IMG/VR virus record: IMGVR_UViG_2608642106_000003
Strand: one strand, 5' to 3'
DNA: 30,648 nucleotides
Origin: a virus
Taxonomy: Duplodnaviria; Heunggongvirae; Uroviricota; Caudoviricetes
The position numbers and the translations under genes were made by a program. Of the stretch, positions 2 to 22,982 are shown piece after piece. The notes under the pieces are model-generated. The model was not told where the DNA came from. It saw only the letters and a program-made list of their open reading frames with translations, and made no database searches. Position 1 is the stretch's first letter. The number at the start of each line of letters is the position of its first letter.

Positions 2-568
2 TTAGCCTCTTATCTTGAATTCTGCTATAACTTTGCCGATGAATACAAGGTCATTAATGTTCATATCAACAATGATATTCCCATAGTTAATCTTAACTTT
101 ATTATCAGGAATTCTAATAACTTGTTTTATAGAATGCTTTCCATCAATGGAGATTAACCAATCACCATCAACTACATCTGTGAAATCCCTCTCAATAAAA
201 TAAGAGTTATTCCCGTTTGATATCACAGATGGTGATGATAAACCATCAGGAATGAACACTTTGTCAAACATTAGTGTTCCTGCATCCAATAGCACTCCAT
301 CAATCAATTTTATTTTTTGAATATTGATGATGTCAGAAGTTAAATATTCATGTTTAGGAGGTAAGCCTGTTACCAGCCACTTTATGTTTACTCCTGTTTC
401 GAGCGCGCACTGAATAACCCAATCAGAAGGGAATGAATCTCTCATGTAGCGTGTAGCAAGACTGCTTTTTGATATGCCTAGTTGTTCACATAACGCCTGT
501 CTTGTAGTGAACCCATAGGCTTCAACCATCCTTTCGATAGCTTTCTTTCCACCTTGACTAAAATCCAT
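2..568 (-). CDS. Phage immunity repressor (186 CI-like, N-terminal helix-turn-helix)
   Basis: ORF 2..673 on minus strand; preferred ATG at 566-568 (MDFSQGGKKAIERMVEAYGFTTRQALCEQLGISKSSL...), ~188 aa; HTH-like segment near N-terminus; transcribed divergently from the early lytic operon as in P2/186 immunity regions. Confidence 0.65.
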   Translation of the reverse strand: MDFSQGGKKAIERMVEAYGFTTRQALCEQLGISKSSLATRYMRDSFPSDWVIQCALETGVNIKWLVTGLPPKHEYLTSDIINIQKIKLIDGVLLDAGTLMFDKVFIPDGLSSPSVISNGNNSYFIERDFTDVVDGDWLISIDGKHSIKQVIRIPDNKVKINYGNIIVDMNINDLVFIGKVIAEFKIRG

Positions 569-574
569 CGATTT

Positions 575-694
575 CACCTTGTGAACTTTATGGTTGACGA
601 TTTCAATTTGTGATCTTATAGTCGCATTGATTTCAAAATGTGACTTACAACTACTCGTCAATGTTAAACACACTTAAACAGGAGATGTTGCCTT
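575..694. promoter_or_regulatory. Divergent early promoter/operator region between repressor and first lytic gene
   Basis: Three TGTGA motifs at 580-584, 609-613 and 639-643 spaced ~30 bp apart; direct repeat GATTTCAA(T/A)(T/A)(T/A)TGTGA at 599-613 and 629-643; AGGAG-type RBS at 681-686 before ATG 695. Confidence 0.4.
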
Positions 695-916
695 ATGACT
701 CAGCACATTTCAATCACATTAGCTGTCCCATCCATTTCGGTTGAAAAGTACAGTGAACTCACAGGGTTATCTGTAGACACTATCAACAGTATGCTCGCAG
801 ATGGACGCCTTAAGCGGCATCGTCTTCGCAAGGATAAAAAACGTGAAAAGGTAATGATCAACATTGCAGCCATGACAGTGGATGCGCTTGCCGATTCCAA
901 TGTCGTAATCAATTGA
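695..916 (+). CDS. Cox/Apl-like small DNA-binding regulator/excisionase (first gene of early lytic operon)
   Basis: 73-aa basic protein (..GRLKRHRLRKDKKREK..) with RBS; called from position and size, analogous to 186 apl / P2 cox. Confidence 0.45.
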   Translation: MTQHISITLAVPSISVEKYSELTGLSVDTINSMLADGRLKRHRLRKDKKREKVMINIAAMTVDALADSNVVIN

Positions 917-948
917 TTCGATTTTGAAATAAAGGGAAGGGGCTGACT

Positions 949-1458
949 ATGTTTGATTATCAAGTTTCCAAACATCCACATTTTGACGAAGCCTGTCGTG
1001 CATTCGCACTGCGCCACAACCTGGTGCGACTGGCAGAACGTGCAGGCATGAATGTACAGATTCTGCGGAACAAGCTGAACCCAGCTCAACCTCATTTATT
1101 AACCGCACCAGAAATCTGGTTGCTTACCGATCTGACTGAAGATTCAACGCTGGTAGATGGCTTTCTGGCACAGATTCACTGCCTGCCATGTGTACCGATT
1201 AATGAGGTGGCAAAAGAGAAACTGCCGCATTATGTCATGAGTGCAACCGCAGAGATCGGGCGTGTTGCTGCAGGTGCGGTATCTGGCGATGTAAAAACCA
1301 GTGCAGGTCGTCGTGATGCTATCAGCAGCATTAACTCTGTAACACGACTGATGGCGCTGGCCGCTGTTTCATTGCAGGCCCGTTTACAGGCTAATCCTGC
1401 GATGGCGAGTGCAGTTGATACCGTGACTGGCCTCGGTGCTTCATTCGGTTTGCTGTGA
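949..1458 (+). CDS. Phage regulatory protein CII-like
   Basis: 169-aa ORF with RBS AAGGGAAGGGG before ATG 949; second gene of early operon, position and size as 186 CII. Confidence 0.5.
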
Positions 1459-1465
1459 GGTGCTT

Positions 1466-1666
1466 ATGCTGACGAAAGAACCATCATTTGCATCGCTGCT
1501 GGTAAAACAAAGTCCGGCAATGCACTACGGTCACGGCTGGATCATGGGTGAGGATGGTAAACGCTGGCATCCGTGCCGTTCACAAGATGAATTGCTGGCA
1601 GAACTATCTACGAAAAAACGGGGGAACAAATGGCTATTGAAGGCGCTGCGGCGACTGTTCCATTAA
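1466..1666 (+). CDS. Small early-region hypothetical protein
   Basis: ATG at 1466 after GAGGTG, just downstream of CII stop at 1456-1458; alternative GTG at 1436 overlaps CII. Confidence 0.4.
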   Translation: MLTKEPSFASLLVKQSPAMHYGHGWIMGEDGKRWHPCRSQDELLAELSTKKRGNKWLLKALRRLFH

Positions 1667-1971
1667 GACCCGGTGAACGCCTGAATGGACTTAATCATAT
1701 TGCGGAGTTAAGGGCGAAAGTTTTTGGTTTGAATATTGAGTCAGAGCTTGAGCGGTTTATTAAAGATATGCGTGATCCTCGGGATATCAATAATGAACAA
1801 AATAAACGGGCACTGGCTGCCATATTCTTTATGGCAAAAATTCCAGCTGAACGTCATAGCATCAGCATTAATGAGCTGACCACTGACGAAAAGCGGGAGT
1901 TGATTAAAGCAATGAATCATTTTCGTGCAGTGGTGAGCTTATTTCCCAGACGGCTAACCATGCCGAATTAA
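1630..1971 (+). CDS. Early-region hypothetical protein
   Basis: 113-aa ORF, ATG 1630 preceded by GGGGGAA; overlaps the upstream gene by 37 nt. Confidence 0.4.
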   Translation: MAIEGAAATVPLRPGERLNGLNHIAELRAKVFGLNIESELERFIKDMRDPRDINNEQNKRALAAIFFMAKIPAERHSISINELTTDEKRELIKAMNHFRAVVSLFPRRLTMPN

Positions 1972-2038
1972 CCAACTAATGAAATTAATGGCGTAAACCC
2001 GCCGGGCATCCCTTTATCTAAATTCAGGAGAATTGCTT

Positions 2039-2272
2039 ATGCGTAATATTGAAACCCTCACGACCAAAACCGGACCGGATGATGCAGGTCTTAATCTTTT
2101 ACTGACAGAGGCTCGTCTGGAAGAACGCCGGGCAAGGGCTGAAGCAATGGCTGCTCGCCTCGATAGCCTGGCGTGTCATATCACCTCCCGCCAGCTAAAC
2201 CACGTCGAAGCGGCAGAACTGCTGCGTGTGACTGCTGAAGCAATCCAGAACGAAGCGCAGGAGATCCACTGA
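2039..2272 (+). CDS. Early-region hypothetical protein (helical, charged)
   Basis: ATG 2039 preceded by AGGAG at 2026-2030; the ORF-track start at 2033 is a TTG. Confidence 0.45.
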   Translation: MRNIETLTTKTGPDDAGLNLLLTEARLEERRARAEAMAARLDSLACHITSRQLNHVEAAELLRVTAEAIQNEAQEIH

Positions 2273-2499
2273 TGGCTGATGCAATGGATCTCGTACAGCA
2301 GCGCGTTGAAGAAGAACGCCAACGCCATATCCGTGCTGCCCGTGCCAAAACGCCGGGCGTGTCCCGCGTGCTTTGCGTTGAGTGTGAAGCGCCAATTCCG
2401 CCAGCACGCCGCCGTGCCATTCCGGGTGTGCAGCTTTGCATTACCTGTCAGGAAATCGCAGAGCTGAAAGGCAAACATTACAACGGAGGTGCTGTATGA
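2272..2499 (+). CDS. TraR/DksA-type C4 zinc-finger protein
   Basis: 75 aa with CxxC...CxxC (CVEC ... CITC); start overlaps upstream stop (ATGA). Confidence 0.6.
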   Translation: MADAMDLVQQRVEEERQRHIRAARAKTPGVSRVLCVECEAPIPPARRRAIPGVQLCITCQEIAELKGKHYNGGAV

Positions 2500-3350
2500 G
2501 CACCATCCTGAAATGGGCAGGAAATAAAACCGCCATAATGTCCGAACTGAAAAAGCATCTTCCTGCTGGCCCGCGACTGGTTGAACCTTTCGCGGGTTCC
2601 TGTGCAGTGATGATGGAGACGGATTACCCCAGCTATCTTGTTGCGGATATTAATCCTGATTTAATCAACCTCTATAAAAAGGTTGCTGCTGATTGTGAGG
2701 CGTTTATATCTCGTGCCAGAGCTTTATTTGAGGAAGCAAACAGGGAGGTGGCTTATTACAACATAAGGCAGGAGTTTAATTACTCCACTGAAATTACTGA
2801 TTTCATGAAAGCGGTATATTTCCTGTATCTCAATCGTCACGGTTACCGTGGTTTATGTCGCTATAACAAGAGCGGGCATTTCAACATTCCCTACGGTAAT
2901 TATAAAAATCCGTATTTCCCTGAAAAAGAAATTCGCGCATTTGCAGAGAAAGCCCAGCGGGCAACGTTTATCTGCGCCAGCTTTGATGAAACGCTGGCGA
3001 TGTTGAAGGTGGGGGATGTGGTGTATTGCGATCCGCCTTATGACGGTACGTTTTCCGGCTATCACACTGATGGTTTCACTGAAGATGATCAGTATCACCT
3101 GGCATCCATTCTTGAACATCGGTCATCAGAAGGACATCCGGTCATTGTTTCTAACAGTAACACGTCTTTGACCCGGTCCCTTTATCGTAATTTCACTCAC
3201 CACTACATCAGGGCGAAACGCAGCATCGGCGTTGCAGCGGGGGAGGGAAAATTTGCAACAGAGATGATTGCCACTAAATCTGCTAATTGGTTTAGTGCCG
3301 ATTTTAGTAGGGGACGTGACTCTACTGTTATTTTCGGGGTGCAAGTGTGA
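2496..3350 (+). CDS. dam: DNA adenine methyltransferase (Dam family, GATC-specific by family)
   Basis: N-terminus [12 protein letters not shown] and catalytic DPPY motif ([10 protein letters not shown]); GGAGG RBS 2485-2489; start overlaps zinc-finger gene stop. Confidence 0.85.
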
Positions 3351-4177
3351 AAGAAATGCACCACGGAATTCATCATTTCCATGGGACGCCTGTCTGGGGA
3401 AGTGCTGGCGACGTTCATCGTATTGCGGTGAGCGGAGCTGGCGCTTTCGTCTCCTATGTACGACCAGATCAGATTGCGGCGTCCATTCAGCACGCTCAGG
3501 TCGTCGGCATTGATAACGGCGCATTTTCTGCATGGGTGCGTGGGCTAAAAATTAACTGGAGTGATTTTTATAAATGGCTCCTGAACTATTACCACCATCC
3601 TAAGGTCGCTTTTTTTGTCATTCCTGATGTTGTGGACGGAGGTGAACGTGACAATGATGCCCTGATAAACGAAGTTCCGAAAATGTTCTACGGGAAGGCA
3701 ACTCCCGTCTGGCATCTGCACGAGTCAATCGATCGGCTTATCGAGCTATGTCGTGAATGGCCTCGTGTCTGCTTTGGATCGTCTGGTGAATATGCGGCTA
3801 TCAGAACTGCGCACTGGCATCGTCGTATGCAGGACGCTTTTGAAGCAATTTATTGCCGACACAATTTCAAAACAGCTGTTCATGGTTTGCGCATGCTTGA
3901 CGGTCGTGTGTTGGGAAATTACCCACTGGCGACTGCCGACAGTACAAATCTTGCCTGCAATGTCCCCAAATTTAATAGCAAATATCCTGAGCTGACGCGG
4001 GCTATTCAGGAGGCTGAGTATTCGCGCAATCTGACGGAAAAGGAGCTGAAAGCTGTCATTCTGAAAAACCGTTGCGCAATTTTAAAAGGTGCAATTGAAG
4101 CTGTTCGCCCACCTTCAGTTTCTGATTGGCTGTCGAATGGTTTGCAGCCTTCACAGCTCGAACTGGAGATTGCGTAA
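3347..4177 (+). CDS. Hypothetical protein translationally coupled to dam; possible nucleic-acid-modification enzyme
   Basis: GTG 3347 overlaps dam stop (GTGA); alternative ATG at 3356. 276 aa, His-rich N-terminus; stop overlaps gene A start (TAATG). Confidence 0.5.
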
Positions 4178-6549
4178 TGAACTACAGCTATTCCTGGAAT
4201 GCTGAGAAAAAAGCAATCAATCCTTACGTAGAGACGGAAGAGCAATCTTCAGTTTCTGCGCTTTCAAACCTGATCGCTCTGTACGCTGCCGATAACGAGC
4301 AGGAACAGCTGCGCCGCGAGGCACTGAGTGATCAGGTCTGGGAGCGTTATTTCTTTAATGAATCCCGTGATCCTGTCCAGCGCGAAATGGAGCAGGATAA
4401 GCTCATTAGTCGGGCAAAGCTGGCGCATGAGCAGCAGCGTTTTAATCCAGATATGGTCATTCTGGCGGACGTTAATGCCCAGCCTTCCCATATCAGCAAG
4501 CCACTGATGCAACGTATTGAATACTTCAGCAGCCTGGGCAGGCCAAAGGCTTATTCCCGCTATTTGCGTGAGACGATTAAGCCATGTCTGGAACGGCTGG
4601 AGCATGTACGCGACTGTCAGCTATCCACTTCTTTTCGCTTTATGGCAAGCCATGAAGGGCTGGACGGCCTGCTGATCCTGCCTGAAATGAGTCAGGATCA
4701 GGTGAAACGCCTGTCCACCCTGGTAGCTGCGCATATGAGCATGTGCCTTGATGCAGCTTGTGGCGATTTGTATGTCACCGATGACGTTAAGCCAGAAGAA
4801 ATCCGCAAGACATGGGAAAAGGTGGCAGCGGAAACCCTGCGTCTGGATGTCATCCCGCCTGCGTTTGAGCAACTCCGCCGGAAAAGAAACCGCCGTAAAC
4901 CCGTGCCCTATGAACTCATTCCGGGTTCGCTGGCGCGTATGTTGTGCGCTGACTGGTGGTACCGGAAATTATGGAAGATGCGTTGCGAATGGCGGGAAGA
5001 GCAGTTGCGTGCTGTCTGCCTGGTCAGCAAAAAAGCATCTCCCTATGTCAGCTATGAAGCCGTGATGCATAAACGTGAGCAGCGCCGTAAGTCGCTGGAG
5101 TTTTTTCGTTCTCATGAACTGGTGAACGAAGACGGCGACACGCTGGACATGGAGGATGTGGTAAACGCCAGCAGCAGCAACCCTGCGCATCGCCGCAATG
5201 AGATGATGGCCTGTGTTAAAGGCCTGGAGCTTATCGCGGAAATGCGCGGTGACTGCGCCGTTTTCTACACCATCACCTGTCCGTCACGTTTCCATTCCAC
5301 GCTAAATAATGGCAGGCCCAACCCAACTTGGACAAATGCGACGGTAAGACAAAGCAGTGATTATCTGGTCGGCATGTTTGCTGCATTTCGTAAGGCGATG
5401 CACAAAGCCGGATTGCGGTGGTATGGCGTGCGGGTGGCTGAGCCGCATCATGACGGTACAGTTCACTGGCACCTGTTGTGTTTTATGCGCAAAAAAGACC
5501 GCCGCGCCATCACTGCATTACTGCGTAAGTTTGCCATCCGTGAAGACCGCGAGGAACTGGGCAATAACACTGGGCCGCGCTTTAAGTCTGAGTTGATTAA
5601 CCCGCGCAAAGGTACGCCAACAAGCTACATCGCGAAATACATCAGTAAGAACATTGACGGGCGTGGTCTGGCTGGCGAGATCAGCAAGGAAACGGGGAAA
5701 TCCCTGCGTGATAATGCTGAATACGTTAATGCCTGGGCGTCTCTGCATCGTGTTCAGCAATTCCGCTTCTTTGGCATTCCGGGGCGTCAGGCTTACCGTG
5801 AACTGCGATTGCTGGCTGGTCAGGCGGCAAGGCAACAGGGGGACAAAAAAGCAGGTGCGCCGGTACTGGATAACCCGCGCCTTGATGCCATCCTGGCTGC
5901 TGCTGATGCTGGTTGTTTTGCCACCTACATCATGAAGCAGGGCGGCGTACTGGTTCCCCGCAAATATCACCTCATCAGAACCGCTTATGAAATCAACGAA
6001 GAGCCGACCGCCTATGGCGATCACGGCATTCGTATTTATGGCATCTGGTCACCTATTGCAGAGGGCAAGATCTGCACTCATGCCGTGAAGTGGAAAATGG
6101 TTCGTAAGGCCGTTGATGTTCAGGAGGCGGCAGCCGACCAGGGCGCTTGCGCCCCTTGGACTCGTGGCAATAACTGTCCCCTTGCTGAAAATTTGAACCA
6201 ACAGGAGAAAGATAAATCAGCTGATGGGGGCACCAGAACGGACATTACCCGCATGGATGACAAGCAGTTGCACGATTACCTGCACAGTATGAGCAAAAAA
6301 GAGCGCCGGGAACTGGCAGCAAGGTTACGCCTGGTTAAACCGAAACGGCGTAAAGACTACAAACAGCGAATTACAGACCATCAGCGACTGCAGCTCGTCT
6401 ATGAGCTGAAGTCCAGAGGATTTGATGGTAGCGAGAAAGAGGTCGATTTACTCCTTCGCGGCGGCAGTATTCCGTCAGGAGCAGGCCTGCGTATCTTCTA
6501 TCGGAACCAGCGTTTGCAGGAAGATGATAAGTGGCGAAACCTGTATTAA
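4177..6549 (+). CDS. A: Rolling-circle replication initiation endonuclease (P2 gpA family)
   Basis: 790 aa from ATG 4177; HUH-like motif ([10 protein letters not shown]) and tyrosine motif (YIAKYISKN); position as P2 gene A. Confidence 0.85.
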
Positions 6550-6643
6550 TTACGCGGGTTAACAATTCGTGCTCTTAATAATACCAGGCATATCAGGCTG
6601 ATGAACGTAAAAAAACGTTTTACATCAGTAAGATTATTATATA

Positions 6644-6659
6644 CTGTAAATATAAACAG
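6644..6659. promoter_or_regulatory. LexA (SOS) box overlapping a promoter
   Basis: CTGTAAATATAAACAG matches CTGT-N8-ACAG with AT-rich spacer; TTTACA at 6619-6624 upstream; precedes ORFs 6702 and 6902. Confidence 0.6.
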
Positions 6660-6701
6660 TGGTTATATTTACAGTATTGCTTTGGTGTCATAGGAGGAAA
6701 G

Positions 6702-6890
6702 ATGCAGGACTATTTTTTGGAGTCTTTGAAGCTCCAGCGCATTGATTTTTTTCTTAAGCTTGTAGCGGCTAGTGAGTGTAGTGATGAAGAGAAGGGGCTG
6801 GCTTTGCAGTGGGTTTCTGAACTAACAGATGAACTCATGGCAAAAATCAGAACCCACGAATACAACCGCTCAATGGATGTCATCAGTTGA
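6702..6890 (+). CDS. Small SOS-controlled protein, candidate Tum-like antirepressor
   Basis: 62-aa ORF with AGGAGG RBS directly downstream of the LexA box; position matches the LexA-controlled tum locus of 186-type phages. Confidence 0.4.
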   Translation: MQDYFLESLKLQRIDFFLKLVAASECSDEEKGLALQWVSELTDELMAKIRTHEYNRSMDVIS

Positions 6891-6901
6891 GGTGACTTTT
6901 T

Positions 6902-7135
6902 ATGCGCATTGAAATAATGATCGATAAAGAGCAGAAGATTAGCCAGTCTACCCTGGACGCCCTTGAATCCGAGCTTTACCGCAATCTGCGTCCTCTGTAT
7001 CCCAAAACGGTAATTCGTATCCGCAAAGGTAGCTCTAACGGTGTGGAACTGACCGGATTGCAACTGGACGAAGAAAGAAAACAAGTGATGAAAATTATGC
7101 AGAAGGTGTGGGAAGACGACAGCTGGCTGCATTAA
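6902..7135 (+). CDS. dinI: DinI-family damage-inducible protein
   Basis: 77 aa starting MRIEIMIDKEQKISQSTLDALESELYRNL..., closely resembling DinI (MRIEV...); GAGGTG RBS. Confidence 0.75.
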   Translation: MRIEIMIDKEQKISQSTLDALESELYRNLRPLYPKTVIRIRKGSSNGVELTGLQLDEERKQVMKIMQKVWEDDSWLH

Positions 7136-7405
7136 GAAACGTTGCTGGCGTCTGAACTTGCTTCTGGCGTCAGCAAGGTTGAACAACGAGCTATGCGAGG
7201 CGTTAGTGTCAATTTGTTACCTTAACCACTATATATGCCAGGAAATTAACAGTTCTTAAGAAACAGCTTGCATGATCGAGCGCATTGAACTTAAGTTTAA
7301 GTAACGCAATCAACAGATGATATTGTTGTCTAAATTTTAAAGATAATCTGTTGAGGTTGTAGGCGTCGGAGTGTAGACTTCCGCGCCATGTGAAAAGGGG
7401 GAGTT

Positions 7406-7621
7406 ATGTCAAGCATCGCCGCATTTAGCCTGGGTAACCCAGTTGAACGTCTGGCAAGGGTTCTTAAAGAGAACCAGGACAAACTCAATCTTAGTAAAGA
7501 TGGTTTTGTGTCCGTAGACTTGTCTAACAAAAGAGCAATGGATGCCATCAAGGCACAGATGGATAAGCTTGAAGGCATCAAAACGAGCACTGTAAAAGAG
7601 AAAACTAATAGAACCAGATAA
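7406..7621 (+). CDS. Small hydrophilic hypothetical protein (cargo, first gene of 2-gene operon)
   Basis: 71 aa, strong RBS AAGGGGGAG before ATG 7406; stop overlaps downstream start (TAATG); AT-rich. Confidence 0.45.
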   Translation: MSSIAAFSLGNPVERLARVLKENQDKLNLSKDGFVSVDLSNKRAMDAIKAQMDKLEGIKTSTVKEKTNRTR

Positions 7622-8463
7622 TGGCAACATTACTTTTAGCAGTGATTTTGGTTAGTGGTTTTATTTATGTAAACCTATCACTTTCAACAAGATACCGATA
7701 TAAGCGTTCCAACGGCTGGGACGCTTATTTTTTTGTGGCTGCCTGGGGTATCGTTTTTTTTCTCCTTGGCGGTTTTTTCACCTTTATTTTGAACGTCAGC
7801 GGAGGGTTTCGTTGGCTGGCTAATGCCTTGAATCTAACACCTGACAGTTTTAATGGCATGTTGTCTTCATCGAAAGACAAACTTCAAAGAATAAATGAAA
7901 TCAAACAGATAGCATGGGTTATGATTTCAATTGTCCTCGCTGCGATTTCAGGTTTTGGAAATAAGTTACGCACATCACGTGGAGATCGTCGCTGGGATGC
8001 CTTAGCTAAAGCTGTGGGTAATAACGCTTTCGAATCATTACTCATGGAAGCGTCCGCAAGACAGTTTCCGATCATAGCAACTCTGTCGTCTCGCAAAATC
8101 TATGTTGGTCTTGTTACTTGTCCGGCGTTAGAAAACGGGCTTTCAGAGCACCTTGAACTTCTCCCGATGTTAAGCGGATATCGGGATAAAGATGATCTAA
8201 CGATTAGTATCACGACTAACTATCACCAACATTATCTTGATAGTGGTGTGATAAGTGGAATGTCTCGGCTTAATATCGAAGATTTCCGTGTGCTCATACC
8301 AAAAGATGAGGTTGAAACAATTTCGTTTTTTGATACTGAGACATATAACAAATTTAAAGAAAATGAAGCCAGGGATAGAAAGAACTGTCGAAAGATTGAT
8401 AGTAAAAGTGCATCTTCGCGCAGCAAGCGTGCAGCAGATGCTGAGTCAAATGATCGTGCATGA
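7621..8463 (+). CDS. Integral membrane protein with soluble C-terminal domain (cargo)
   Basis: 280 aa; three hydrophobic helices (approx. residues 3-20, 36-58, 96-113) then ~165-aa hydrophilic region; translationally coupled to 7406..7621. Confidence 0.55.
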   Translation: MATLLLAVILVSGFIYVNLSLSTRYRYKRSNGWDAYFFVAAWGIVFFLLGGFFTFILNVSGGFRWLANALNLTPDSFNGMLSSSKDKLQRINEIKQIAWVMISIVLAAISGFGNKLRTSRGDRRWDALAKAVGNNAFESLLMEASARQFPIIATLSSRKIYVGLVTCPALENGLSEHLELLPMLSGYRDKDDLTISITTNYHQHYLDSGVISGMSRLNIEDFRVLIPKDEVETISFFDTETYNKFKENEARDRKNCRKIDSKSASSRSKRAADAESNDRA

Positions 8464-8511
8464 CTATGCTGCATGAGATCGCATGATCGTTTGAGGATCG
8501 TTTTTGCTAGG

Positions 8512-8538
8512 GCCCGCCAGAACTGGCGGGCTTTCGCG
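8512..8538 (+). terminator. Putative intrinsic terminator after membrane-protein gene
   Basis: GCCCGCCAG/CTGGCGGGC inverted repeat (8512-8531) followed by CTTTCGCG; U-tract weak. Confidence 0.35.
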
Positions 8539-8580
8539 TAGATCATGCACCTGCATGAAAACTACTACATAAAGCGGGCA

Positions 8581-8600
8581 GGCGTGGCGGGGATACGAGC
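8581..8600. other. cos-like cohesive-end site
   Basis: GGCGTGGCGGGGATACGAGC followed by GCGCGCTCACTGAC...TTTTCAG resembles the P2 left-end cohesive sequence as recalled from memory. Confidence 0.4.
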
Positions 8601-8675
8601 GCGCGCTCACTGACAGTTTTCAGAAAAGTATATATAATCGCCTGAAAGATCTATACGTGCAGTGGAAATCATCAA

Positions 8676-9710
8676 ATGGATAAAAGATATCAGGTTTTTG
8701 TTAGTTCAACTTTTGCTGATCTTGAAGAAGAAAGGCAGGAAGTAATGCAAGCACTGCTGGAGCTTGATTGTATGCCAGCAGGAATGGAATTATTTCCAGC
8801 AACAAATAGTGATCAGTGGAGTTTAATAAAAAAAATAATTGACGATAGTGATTATTATATTGTTATCTTGGCAGGGCGTTATGGTTCAATTGGTCCTGAT
8901 GGAATAAGCTATACAGAAATGGAGTATCGTTATGCTTTGGAAACTGGTAAGCCAGTTATAGGTTTTATTCATAAAGATAAAAGTAACCTCCCCGCAAAAC
9001 GTTGTGAGTCAAACCCTGAAGGCGTAGAAAAACTAAAGGCTTTCGAAGAGCTAGTTAAAACAAAATTATGTCGTTTTTGGGAGTCTCCTGCAGAGTTAGG
9101 TAGCCAGGTTAGCAGAAGTTTGATTAGACTAATTAAAGAATGTCCTGCAATTGGGTGGGTTAAAGGAAATTTAGTAACTAATGATGGTGATGCAAAGGAA
9201 ATATTGAAATTAAAAAGGCGAATTGAGGAGCTTGAAAGTCAACTTGTATCAAGTATGACTGAAGCGCCTGCAGGTGCAGAAAAACTATCTCAAGGAGATG
9301 AGCTTTTTGAATTGGATTATGAATTCTGTGTGTCGCCTACAGAATGGAGACATAATGGTGAAGAATATACCGATAAGGTCAAATTAAGCTGGAACGATAT
9401 TTTTTCATATGTTTCGCCTTTGATGATAGATGAGATAGTGGATGATAAGCTATATAGTGCTTTAAATAACTGTGTGCGAAATGCAGTTCAAGATATCATC
9501 TATGAGGATTTTAAAGATATGAATTTATTATCTTTAAAAGTATCTAATTCTGATTTCCAAACAATAAAAGTGCAGTTTAGGGCGCTTGGGTTAATTATTA
9601 AAAGTGAAAAGAGTAGAAGTGTTAAAGATAAAGGTACTTATTGGACTTTAACACCGTATGGCGAAAATTTAATGACAACATTGAGAGCGATTAAAAAAAC
9701 TTTGGTATAG
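8676..9710 (+). CDS. DUF4062-like N-terminal domain protein, candidate anti-phage effector (cargo)
   Basis: 344 aa; N-terminus YQVFVSSTFADLEEERQEV matches the signature I associate with DUF4062; coiled-coil-like KEILKLKRRIEELESQL; unassigned C-terminal domain; AT-rich. Confidence 0.6.
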   Translation: MDKRYQVFVSSTFADLEEERQEVMQALLELDCMPAGMELFPATNSDQWSLIKKIIDDSDYYIVILAGRYGSIGPDGISYTEMEYRYALETGKPVIGFIHKDKSNLPAKRCESNPEGVEKLKAFEELVKTKLCRFWESPAELGSQVSRSLIRLIKECPAIGWVKGNLVTNDGDAKEILKLKRRIEELESQLVSSMTEAPAGAEKLSQGDELFELDYEFCVSPTEWRHNGEEYTDKVKLSWNDIFSYVSPLMIDEIVDDKLYSALNNCVRNAVQDIIYEDFKDMNLLSLKVSNSDFQTIKVQFRALGLIIKSEKSRSVKDKGTYWTLTPYGENLMTTLRAIKKTLV

Positions 9711-9712
9711 AT

Positions 9713-9746
9713 AACAAAGGCCGTTCATATATGAACGGCCTTTGTT
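9713..9746. terminator. Bidirectional intrinsic terminator between converging cargo gene and portal gene
   Basis: Perfect inverted repeat AACAAAGGCCGTTCATAT/ATATGAACGGCCTTTGTT, followed by GTTTTATTG on plus strand. Confidence 0.55.
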
Positions 9747-20395: not shown

Positions 20396-20993
20396 TCTGC
20401 TGCCACCGGGTTCAACTTCACTGGAGCGCCGACTGGCGCAAACCTGTAGCGGGATTTCTGATTTGCAGGTGCCGCTGCGTGACTTGTGGAATCCGGCTAC
20501 CTGTCCGGTCAGTTTCCTGCCTTATCTCGCCTGGGCGTTCTCTGTGGATCGCTGGGACGAGGGCTGGACAGAAAGCGTCAAGCGCCAGGTGGTGAAGGAT
20601 GCTTTTTATATTCATCAGCATAAAGGGACCACCAGTGCCGTGCGGCGGGTGGTGGAGCCGTTCGGCTTTCTGATCCGCATTATTGAGTGGTGGCAGACCG
20701 GAGAAACACCCGGCACGTTTCGCCTGGATATCGGCGTGCAGGACCAGGGCATCACTGAAGATACCTATCTGGAACTTGAGAGGCTGATAAGCGATGCCAA
20801 ACCATGTAGCCGTCACATGATCGGCATGTCCATCAATCTGCAGACCAGCGGCCCGTATTGGTTGGGGGCAGCCAGTTATCTTGGTGAAGAAATCACGATC
20901 TTTCCGTATATCAACGAAACAATTATTTCCGGCGGCACCGCGCATGAAGGCGGGGCGGTCCATGTTATTGACACAATGAGAGTGAATCCATGA
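20388..20993 (+). CDS. I: Baseplate/tail protein (P2 gpI family)
   Basis: 201 aa; overlaps J stop and H start. Confidence 0.8.
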   Translation: MNSLLPPGSTSLERRLAQTCSGISDLQVPLRDLWNPATCPVSFLPYLAWAFSVDRWDEGWTESVKRQVVKDAFYIHQHKGTTSAVRRVVEPFGFLIRIIEWWQTGETPGTFRLDIGVQDQGITEDTYLELERLISDAKPCSRHMIGMSINLQTSGPYWLGAASYLGEEITIFPYINETIISGGTAHEGGAVHVIDTMRVNP

Positions 20994-21732
20994 GCACAAA
21001 ATTTTATACCCTGCTGACGGATATTGGCGCGGCGAAACTTGCCAGCGCCGCCGCGCTCGGTGTGCCGTTAAAAATTACCCATATGGCGGTCGGCGATGGC
21101 GGCGGAACATTACCAACGCCGGACGCAAAGCAGACAGCACTGGTAAATGAGAAACGCCGGGCTGCGCTGAATATGCTCTATATCGACCCGCAGAACAGCA
21201 GCCAGATTATTGCTGAACAGGTGATCCCTGAAAACGAGGGCGGTTGGTGGATACGTGAAGTGGGCCTGTTTGATGAGTCCGGGGCATTGATTGCCGTGGG
21301 CAACTGCCCGGAAAGCTATAAGCCGCAACTGGCTGAAGGCAGCGGGCGTACCCAGACCGTGCGTATGGTGTTGATTACCAGCAGCACGGACAATATCACC
21401 CTGAAAATCGACCCTGCCGTAGTGCTGGCAACCCGCAAGTATGTGGATGACAAAATATCAGAGCACGAACAGTCACGACGTCACCCGGACGCCTCGCTGA
21501 CCGCAAAGGGTTTTACTCAGTTAAGCAGTGCGACCAACAGTGAATCCGAAATACTGGCCGCAACACCGAAGGCTGTGAAGGCTGCATATGATCTTGCAGC
21601 AGGTAAAGCATCCGCCAGTCACACACACCCGTGGAATCAGATAACGGATGTGCCTGCAGCTTCACTGACGGTAAAAGGCACCGTGCAACTCAGCAGCGCC
21701 ACTAACAGCACGTCAGAAACGCAGGCTGCCAC
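20990..21732 (+). CDS. H: Tail fibre protein (P2 gpH family), N-terminal part, interrupted by assembly gap
   Basis: MSTKFYTLLTDIGAAKLA...MAVGDGGG...ESYKP.LAEGSGR.QT.RMV matches recalled gpH N-terminus; contains SSATNS.SE..AATPKAVKA repeats; runs into the N-run at 21733. Confidence 0.8.
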
Positions 21733-22027
21733 NNNNNNNNNNNNNNNNNNNNNNNNNNNNNNNNNNNNNNNNNNNNNNNNNNNNNNNNNNNNNNNNNNNN
21801 NNNNNNNNNNNNNNNNNNNNNNNNNNNNNNNNNNNNNNNNNNNNNNNNNNNNNNNNNNNNNNNNNNNNNNNNNNNNNNNNNNNNNNNNNNNNNNNNNNNN
21901 NNNNNNNNNNNNNNNNNNNNNNNNNNNNNNNNNNNNNNNNNNNNNNNNNNNNNNNNNNNNNNNNNNNNNNNNNNNNNNNNNNNNNNNNNNNNNNNNNNNN
22001 NNNNNNNNNNNNNNNNNNNNNNNNNNN
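21733..22027. other. Assembly gap (295 N) inside tail-fibre gene
   Basis: Run of n characters; flanks are near-identical to each other. Confidence 0.95.
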
Positions 22028-22028
22028 T

Positions 22029-22982
22029 CACACGCACCCGTGGAGCCAGATAACGGATGTGCCTGCAGCTTCACTGACGGTAAAAGGCACCGTGCAACTC
22101 AGCAGCGCCACTAACAGCACGTTAGAAACGCAGGCTGCCACACCAAAAGCCGTGAAGGCTGTATATGACCTTGCCAATGGAAAACAACCTGCCGACGCCA
22201 CACTGACCGCACTGGCAGGCCTTGCCACTGCGGCAGACAAACTTCCGTATTTTACGGGGAATGATACAGCCAGCCTGACAACCCTGACTAACGTTGGACG
22301 GAATATTCTGGATAAAGCAAGCACACAGGCGGTTATTCAATATCTTGGTCTGAGCGATGCAAGTGGATACGTTGGACGCTGGCTGAATACCCGGGTTTTC
22401 ACCTCATCAGGTACGTACACCCCGACGCCAGGAACAAAACGGATCAGGGTCACAATAACTGGCGGCGGTGGCGGTGGGGGCGGCTGCAAGGCTATATCCA
22501 ATAATGAAACGTTTTTCGGTGCTGGCGGTGGGGCCGGTGGAACAATAATTTCAATAATGACCCCGACACAGAATAGTTATCCAGTCACTATCGGCGCAGG
22601 TGGGGCCGGTGGTGTTAGTGCGACGAACGGCACCAGTGGCGGGAATAGCGTATTTGCATCGTTAATTGCTCCTGGTGGCGCAGGTGGCGGGAAAGTGGGA
22701 GTTACAAATACAAACGGCGGTAACGGAGGTGTGCCGAGTACTGGCGATATCCGCATCACTGGTGGAAATGGAGGCGACGGTCAGTCCGGAAATATCAGCG
22801 TCAGCGGTGAAGGCGGAACATCGTACTGGGGTGGCGGTGGACGCGCAGGCGCTGGCGGTGGCGTTAGCGGTAAGGCATATGGTTCAGGCGGAGGTGGTGC
22901 ATACGATGCCGGTTATAGCGGAACCAGTATGACGGGCGGGAAAGGCGCTGCAGGGATTTGTATTATCGAGGAGTTTGCATAA
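22029..22982 (+). CDS. H: Tail fibre protein (gpH family), C-terminal part with glycine-rich distal domain
   Basis: Frame from 22029 reads HTHPWSQITDVPAASLTVKGTVQLSSATNS...KQPADATLTALAGLATAADKLPYFTGND (gpH-like), then Gly-rich segment GGGGGGGGCK...AGICIIEEFA; stop 22980-22982. Confidence 0.75.
   Translation, partial: HTHPWSQITDVPAASLTVKGTVQLSSATNSTLETQAATPKAVKAVYDLANGKQPADATLTALAGLATAADKLPYFTGNDTASLTTLTNVGRNILDKASTQAVIQYLGLSDASGYVGRWLNTRVFTSSGTYTPTPGTKRIRVTITGGGGGGGGCKAISNNETFFGAGGGAGGTIISIMTPTQNSYPVTIGAGGAGGVSATNGTSGGNSVFASLIAPGGAGGGKVGVTNTNGGNGGVPSTGDIRITGGNGGDGQSGNISVSGEGGTSYWGGGGRAGAGGGVSGKAYGSGGGGAYDAGYSGTSMTGGKGAAGICIIEEFA

Follow-up and report, generated by a model that had tools for sequence, protein, structure and literature searches.

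How does the prophage carried on this stretch of DNA leave the lysogenic state? The window analyzed here, i.e., the whole stretch of 30,648 nucleotides of the Caudoviricetes record IMGVR_UViG_2608642106_000003, holds the early region and the morphogenetic genes of a prophage that belongs to the P2 family and is of the 186/Fels-2 type (Table 1). Two small open reading frames (ORFs), which we refer to as tumA and tumB, lie downstream of replication gene A in this phage with a 186-type CI repressor; they are followed by ~2.6 kb of cargo and then by the portal, terminase, and tail genes, and the large P2-type ORFs from portal to gpD form a full set in the window. A sequence-only reading had proposed that the two ORFs are controlled by LexA in the manner of the tum gene of 186 and that the prophage is induced by an antirepressor rather than by autocleavage of its repressor. 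Based on the analyses described below, we conclude that the module very probably is the SOS-induction unit of a Fels-2/186-like E. coli prophage in a split tumA/tumB form. Positions 6550 to 7400 recur at 100% identity in the chromosomes of several E. coli strains, among them ECCRA-119 and EC3. Of 5426 complete E. coli genomes, 1125 carry all or part of the module, some of them in two to three copies. PADLOC returned no match on the module and the downstream cargo.

Table 1. Positions of the genes and predicted regulatory elements in the window
Feature	Position	Strand	Description
cI	2-568	minus	Phage_CI_repr + Phage_CI_C
apl/cox-like gene	695-916		phrog_575
cII	949-1458		PF06892
DUF5347, DUF2732, and TraR/DksA-like genes	after cII, before Dam methylase		
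Dam methylase gene	2436-3350		
Replication gene A (gpA)	4126-6549		PF05840, 8.4e-128
Predicted -35 element, TTTACA	6619-6624	+	A-tract at 6609-6615 just 5'
Predicted -10 element, TACTGT	6642-6647	+	Left half-site of LexA box 1
Predicted LexA box 1, TACTGTAAATATAAACAGTG	6642-6661		Core CTGT-N8-ACAG at 6644-6659; 23.3 bits
Predicted LexA box 2, CAGTGGTTATATTTACAGTA	6657-6676		Core at 6659-6674; 16.0 bits
Shine-Dalgarno sequence of tumA, AGGAGG	6692-6697	+	5 nt 5' of the ATG at 6702
tumA	6702-6890	+	62 aa; predicted acidic helical hairpin; putative antirepressor of CI
tumB	6902-7135	+	77 aa; DinI-like; 11 nt after tumA
Hairpin	7138-7180	+	Strong, without U-tract, just 3' of tumB; may serve in partial termination or in processing

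The repressor itself points to the likely route of induction. In Pfam, the window CI matches Phage_CI_repr (1.3e-28) and Phage_CI_C (2.4e-26), and it aligns end to end with the CI of 186 (30% identity, E 2e-31). The Pfam scan detected no Peptidase_S24 domain, which a repressor with lambda-type autocleavage would carry; besides the CI domains, only a sub-threshold match to DUF7087 was obtained. Because CI is of the 186 type and without an S24 domain, an antirepressor, and not autocleavage, is the expected induction route.

To score LexA sites, we used a symmetrised matrix of our own, based on 18 E. coli LexA operators, with training sites that score from 12.8 to 26.7 bits. The sequence CTGTAAATATAAACAG at 6644-6659 is the sole occurrence of CTGT-N8-ACAG in the window. 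This bare pattern is weak evidence on its own, as the expectation is 0.48 occurrences per window, and at least one was present in 37 of 100 shuffles. The full 20-mer of box 1, by comparison, scored 23.3 bits, while the best sites in 200 Markov-random windows had a median of 10.8 bits and a maximum of 19.0 bits. The second-highest LexA site in the window is box 2, and the third reaches only 10.7 bits. The 16-bp cores of boxes 1 and 2 overlap by a single base, G6659, which is the spacing of colicin-type double operators. The canonical box of the sequence-only reading is an exact and unique match; the second, overlapping box had been missed in that reading. From the matrix scores, both boxes are predicted to be bound by LexA.

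For comparison, one genome per species of Enterobacterales was scanned for homologous loci, which yielded 35 loci with a TumA relative (65 to 100% identity) from Escherichia, Citrobacter, Enterobacter, Klebsiella, Serratia, Pantoea, Erwinia, and others. A box 1 of at least 19 bits within ~100 nt 5' of the start codon is kept in 32 of these loci, and its variation across loci is mainly confined to the AT-rich center. Of the other three loci, one lies on a truncated contig, one has two boxes of 16 bits, and one (L038) combines a decayed box with a frameshift in tumA. Box 2 is found at the same 15-nt offset with at least 14 bits in 22 of the 35 loci, mainly in Enterobacteriaceae, while the Pantoea/Erwinia group, like 186 and PSP3, has a single LexA box.

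A generic sigma-70 scan of positions 6400 to 7500 did not find a promoter. The scan misses the -10 element because TACTGT fits TATAAT at just three of six positions, and we therefore placed the promoter based on the phylogenetic footprint and the annotation of 186. When the loci are aligned on box 1, an A-tract, the -35 element TTTACA, a 17-nt spacer, and TACTGT become visible; in nearly all of the 35 loci, TTTACA or TTCACA lies exactly 17 nt 5' of TACTGT, and the spacer is constant in length and free to vary in sequence. The p95 promoter of 186 is annotated alike, with a -35 element TTCACA, an 18-nt spacer, a -10 element TACTGT, and a LexA site that begins at the -10 element. The -10 element in the window is contained in box 1, so that operator and promoter overlap at the sequence level. 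Box 1 would cover the -10 element and the likely transcription start, expected at ~6653-6656, and box 2 would lie just downstream. Farther downstream, the Shine-Dalgarno region of tumA is kept across related loci as ATAGGAGG(G)AA. The promoter-like region that had been noticed before the 62-aa ORF is thus borne out by a conserved arrangement of -35, 17-nt spacer, -10, and Shine-Dalgarno elements and by the p95-like layout.

Among the 35 ungapped homologues of tumA, the median dN/dS was 0.074 (438 pairs; median dS 1.09), and these comparisons indicate that tumA is a real gene whose protein sequence is under strong purifying selection. An antisense ORF of 158 aa (6710-7186) and a 30-aa ORF (6601-6693) were rejected as artefacts, as the homology and the selection signal lie in the plus-strand genes. 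In public records, the 62-aa gene is listed as "hypothetical protein" or, wrongly, as "levan regulatory protein."

TumA has no match to a Pfam or NCBIfam family, and BLASTP gave no alignment of TumA with 186 Tum or PSP3 TumA. Profile comparisons, by contrast, related TumA to the N-terminal half of 186 Tum, which is not DinI-like. TumA matches phrog_698 at 3.6e-38 and, more weakly, phrog_8554 and phrog_1993, and residues 1-69 of 186 Tum match the same three families (phrog_1993, 1.5e-23; phrog_8554, 3.3e-12; phrog_698, 5.7e-6). Using hhalign, a profile of 27 diverse family members aligned with 186 Tum over residues 3-45 of both with a probability of 94.9% (E 4.7e-8), while the comparison of the family with PSP3 TumA gave a probability of only 7% (E 0.005). 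The family and Tum have in common the motif E-x-[LIV]-x-[LIV]-[QE]-R-[IV]-[DE]-x(3)-[KR]-L-x(5)-C-x(3)-[DE]-[KR]-x-[LI]-A-[LI]-x(2)-[LIV]-x-E-[LI]. An AlphaFold2 model of TumA based on the family alignment (pLDDT 85.6) predicts a helical hairpin with helices at residues 2-22 and 28-61 and the conserved Cys26 in the turn. The protein has 12 Asp/Glu and 7 Lys/Arg residues by direct count. A Foldseek search of the PDB with this model returned generic helical hairpins only, none at an E value of 0.001 or better, and the family profile, searched against PDB sequences, had no hits.

TumB matches the Pfam DinI family PF06183 with an E value of 6.6e-23 and 81.3 bits (cut-off, 24.2 bits) and the structure of E. 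coli DinI (1GHH) with an E value of 2.7e-6. It is 41% identical to residues 71-145 of 186 Tum and 78% identical to PSP3 TumB, i.e., the second gene of the module corresponds to the DinI-like second half of Tum. Its score of 42.7 bits lies below the cut-off of 111 bits for the NCBIfam DinI equivalog (NF007893). By these matches, TumB is a phage paralogue of the DinI family and neither the host gene nor a DinI orthologue. Of the 35 loci that retain tumA and the LexA box, 15 lack TumB; by this distribution, TumB is evolutionarily dispensable to the module, and TumA is its constant element.

Two hairpins were considered in this region. A terminator-like hairpin flagged between tumA and tumB (6879-6896) was rejected as an attenuator, as it folds no better than shuffled sequences (z -0.85). 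The fold of positions 7128-7215, which includes the hairpin just 3' of tumB, has an energy of -28.9 kcal/mol (z -2.0), and this hairpin corresponds in position to the partial terminator t95a of 186. DNA homology with several relatives reaches position 7206.

The module is already known from phages that are nearly identical over it and in which it has been tested genetically. Over positions 6550-7133, Fels-2 and the window have 97.9% DNA identity, and the Fels-2 genes STM2728 and STM2726.1 are the counterparts of the two ORFs; the annotation of STM2726.1 notes its similarity to PSP3 TumB. In DuoHS, the prophage of E. coli HS, the counterparts of tumA and tumB are ECHS_RS04495 and ECHS_RS04500. 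Across the entire module, with the two LexA boxes included, Fels-2 and DuoHS have 96 to 98% DNA identity to the window, and their TumB proteins are nearly identical to that of the window. Box 1 of DuoHS is identical to that of the window, while the center of box 2 differs by one to two bases in Fels-2/DuoHS, and the cargo 3' of tumB differs from that in both phages. ECHS_RS04495 is a 189-nt ORF directly 5' of the DinI-like gene, and TumA is identical to its product at 61 of 62 positions. In the Phollow study, an in-frame deletion of this gene, named tum, abolished lysis and the formation of virion foci in response to mitomycin C, and a lexA(Ind-) allele likewise abolished mitomycin C induction of DuoHS (PMC12055606). 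The Fels-2 operon STM2726-2727-2728 responds to the mutagen MX, with STM2727 upregulated 5.5- to 14.8-fold (PMC2225428). Fels-2 and PSP3 are described as having tum split in two, with the upstream half acting as the antirepressor in PSP3 (PMC3121763).

These data agree well with the sequence-only reading on its central points. The 62-aa ORF was taken for a candidate Tum-like antirepressor, and both the homology to the N-terminal part of Tum and the near identity to DuoHS Tum favor this assignment; the ORF after it was called DinI-like, as the Pfam match and the identity to PSP3 TumB confirm. The sequence elements of a LexA-repressed tum system as in 186 are present, i.e., the boxes, the Tum homologue, the DinI-like gene, the position after gene A, and the type of CI. 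Induction by an antirepressor instead of repressor autocleavage is supported by the lack of an S24 domain in CI and by the need for tum in DuoHS. The DuoHS phenotype is not strictly assignable to TumA alone because tumB lies 11 nt away and its expression could be affected by the deletion. In addition, the transfer of the DuoHS genetics to the window would presuppose that TumA tolerates the divergence between the two CI proteins. Since the logic is established for 186, Fels-2, PSP3, and DuoHS, the finding mainly serves correct annotation.

The divergence of CI is considerable. The CI proteins of the window and DuoHS are 47% identical, with 75% identity in residues 1-68 and 29% in the remainder. 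DNA homology (91%) between the two starts at position 393 of the window; they have in common apl, cII, the operators between cI and apl (569-694), and ~58 codons at the start of cI, while the C-terminal domain of CI is replaced. Likewise, phage records with a TumA 100% identical to that of the window have CI proteins that are just 34 to 47% identical to the window CI. Pairwise comparison of the 24 loci that carry both genes gave median identities of 82% for TumA and 41% for full-length CI (62% for residues 1-68 and 30% for the C-terminal domain). The identities of TumA and CI were not positively correlated (Spearman -0.18; 24 loci), and in pairs with at least 95% identical TumA, the N-terminal domains of CI were 54 to 84% and the C-terminal domains 24 to 66% identical. 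That TumA is nearly invariant while the paired CI proteins diverge to 30 to 50% identity is a point absent from the literature surveyed. Tentatively, and with rather less confidence than we would place in an even chance, we suggest that TumA may be a generalist antirepressor that recognizes an invariant surface of the helix-turn-helix domain of CI and tolerates swaps of the immunity region. If so, one SOS-induced TumA could induce heteroimmune Fels-2/186-like prophages in the same cell, and the double LexA operator of the colicin type would make such a shared decision depend on a high level of damage.

Taken together, we propose the following model for induction. In the lysogen, LexA would bind the two overlapping operators, one at the -10 element and one in the region just downstream, and keep the promoter tightly shut. 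Upon DNA damage, RecA would be activated, LexA would cleave itself, and the promoter would open to give a transcript encoding TumA and TumB. TumA would then bind the 186-type CI non-covalently and block its binding to the operators; for the CI of the window, this action is extrapolated from its relatives. With CI off its operators, the early lytic promoter adjoining cI would be released, and lytic development would follow. TumB most likely modulates the activity of the RecA filament and hence the strength or duration of the SOS response, a role we infer from its family, and the double LexA box may serve to hold a lethal decision, prophage induction, tightly off. This model predicts a widespread family of E. 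coli prophages inducible by DNA-damaging agents, including antibiotics such as quinolones, and it predicts that deletion of tumA or a lexA(Ind-) allele would lock the prophage in.

The module could be intact and SOS regulated in a prophage that is itself not productively inducible, with its effect exerted in trans on other 186/Fels-2-like prophages or on the host SOS response. There is a precedent in BTP5 of Salmonella D23580, in which the tum homologue is strongly expressed and no infectious phage was recovered (PMC7067206), and trans-acting antirepressors have been documented in the Gifsy and Fels-1 prophages (PMC3121763). Action in trans is also made plausible by identical TumA proteins that occur with very different CI proteins, and the E. 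coli genomes with two to three copies of the module fit such a scenario. Moreover, int and att lie outside the window and a masked run of N (21733-22027) falls in the tail-fibre region, so that the intactness of the prophage cannot be judged from the window. However, the set of large P2-type ORFs is full, the cI, apl/cox, cII, and gpA genes are intact, and DuoHS, the closest tested relative, is productively inducible (PMC12055606). We consider a non-productive prophage unlikely on this evidence and favor an SOS-induction unit that serves its own prophage.

Far less probable is that TumB is the effector of induction and the 62-aa ORF a mere leader or coupling ORF. The short distance between the two genes would fit coupling, a weak hairpin spans the stop codon of tumA and the Shine-Dalgarno sequence of tumB so that deletion of tumA might lower TumB, and a separate 77-aa DinI-like product of 186 is annotated as a modulator of SOS induction. 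Against this, the hairpin is unremarkable, as noted above, tumA is under strong purifying selection as a protein, its product is homologous to the half of Tum that is not DinI-like, and TumB is absent from many loci that keep tumA and the box. In PSP3, antirepressor activity is reported for the upstream gene (PMC3121763). We give next to no credence to the last alternative, in which the LexA box is a chance match in AT-rich intergenic sequence and LexA does not control the operon. The frequency of the bare 8-base pattern in shuffled windows would allow for this, but the 20-mer outscores all 200 random windows, a second box lies at the colicin-type offset, and the box is kept in nearly all loci while the flanking spacer has diverged. 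In addition, the box has decayed in the sole locus with a frameshifted tumA, and DuoHS, with an identical box 1, is blocked in induction by lexA(Ind-) (PMC12055606). We therefore retain a LexA-controlled operon with TumA as the probable effector.

Among known systems, the module can be compared with the SOS operon of 186, which consists of p95, its LexA site, tum, and orf97 and is located at the same position, after replication gene A. In 186, the SOS response de-represses the LexA-regulated p95, and Tum, an anti-CI factor, inhibits and sequesters CI (PMC7708051). As in the window, the -10 element TACTGT of 186 is inside the LexA box, and CI is of the same family and lacks autocleavage. The two differ in that 186 Tum is one polypeptide of 146 aa, from which internal starts also yield the DinI-like part, while the window has two ORFs. 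Moreover, 186 has a single near-consensus LexA box of 28.6 bits instead of two overlapping, weaker boxes, and orf97 downstream instead of unrelated cargo. PSP3 has the two-gene layout of the window, with tumA annotated as "similar to 5' end 186 tum; UV induction of prophage" and tumB as "similar to dinI and 3' end of 186 tum"; it differs in its single LexA box and in a TumA that is at most a marginal relative.

The double operator has its counterpart in the promoters of colicin operons, which contain two overlapping SOS boxes with 16-bp cores and one common base. A 51-nt query matched hundreds of small Col-type plasmids. In plasmid NZ_CP010128, ctgtatataaaaccagtggttatatatacagta is located 45 nt 5' of a colicin-like pore-former gene in the same double-box layout, and the operator of the window is 84% identical to this operator over 47 nt. 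The genes controlled in colicin operons are unrelated to those of the window, and the likeness is limited to the operator and does not imply common descent. In the colicin operons, the double boxes are bound by two LexA dimers, and untimely lethal expression is prevented (PMC2994835). Finally, the antirepressors GfoA and GftA of the Gifsy and Fels-1 prophages belong to lambdoid phages with a different repressor family and are encoded in operons with dinI first, i.e., in the reverse order; as here, they are LexA repressed, act by binding a non-cleavable repressor, and have a dinI homologue in the operon (PMC3121763).

We compared the prophage in the window with DuoHS, a prophage of E. coli HS, over positions 2-392 and 393-3271. 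DNA homology of 91% sets in at position 393, within the repressor gene cI, and the two prophages have the CI N-terminal domain, the operators, apl, and cII in common. The CI C-terminal domain, encoded by 2-392, is a different allele from that of DuoHS, with 29% protein identity. As judged from this sequence comparison, the recombination break point between the window and DuoHS is within cI.

The DNA comparison also showed that 3272-4251 has no counterpart in either DuoHS or L006, a related locus encoding a TumA relative. A 276-aa ORF lies in this region. PHROG comparison matched it to phrog_887, annotated as queuine tRNA-ribosyltransferase (2.4e-96), and searches of Pfam and NCBIfam returned no match. 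The product is possibly a transglycosylase resembling DpdA, which would serve the modification of DNA with 7-deazaguanine and be encoded on a P2-family prophage.

The cargo island that follows the DinI-like gene tumB is a variable slot: gene content between tumB and the portal gene differs among relatives, and E. coli EC3, for instance, has a gene of the SieB family there, whereas the Salmonella prophage Fels-2 has STM2726. The content of this slot may be superinfection-exclusion or defence genes; PADLOC gave no matches for the 71-aa, 280-aa, and 344-aa genes of the island. Separately, a run of N (masked sequence) occupies 21733-22027 inside ORF 20990-22114 of the tail-fibre region.

Coordinates of the features discussed (window unless another locus is named)
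Feature	Position	Strand	Remark
276-aa ORF	3347-4177	+	flanked by Dam methylase and gene A
Cargo island	7136-9746		tumB on one side, portal gene on the other
71-aa ORF, cargo island	7406-7621		phrog_9843
280-aa ORF, cargo island	7621-8463		phrog_3630
344-aa protein, cargo island	8676-9710		N-terminal DUF4062 (PF13271, 1.5e-29)
Frameshifted tumA	L038 8001-8186		Siccibacter turicensis

The 62-aa gene, tumA, is labeled "hypothetical protein" in RefSeq and "levan regulatory (domain) protein" in some phage and UniRef records; none of the database records listed names it Tum or antirepressor. In the Siccibacter turicensis locus, the frameshifted tumA is accompanied by a decayed LexA box with a top score of 6.0 bits, and this prophage is presumably defective, with joint decay of tumA and its operator. 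Many TumA relatives of <50% identity share a C-terminal tail of conserved sequence, K-[NS]-P-[QR]-x-G-G...G-x(1-3)-[LF]-Q; P0147, P0152, P0155, P0172, P0177, and P0181 are the distant relatives in question. Unlike these proteins, TumA of the window lacks the tail.
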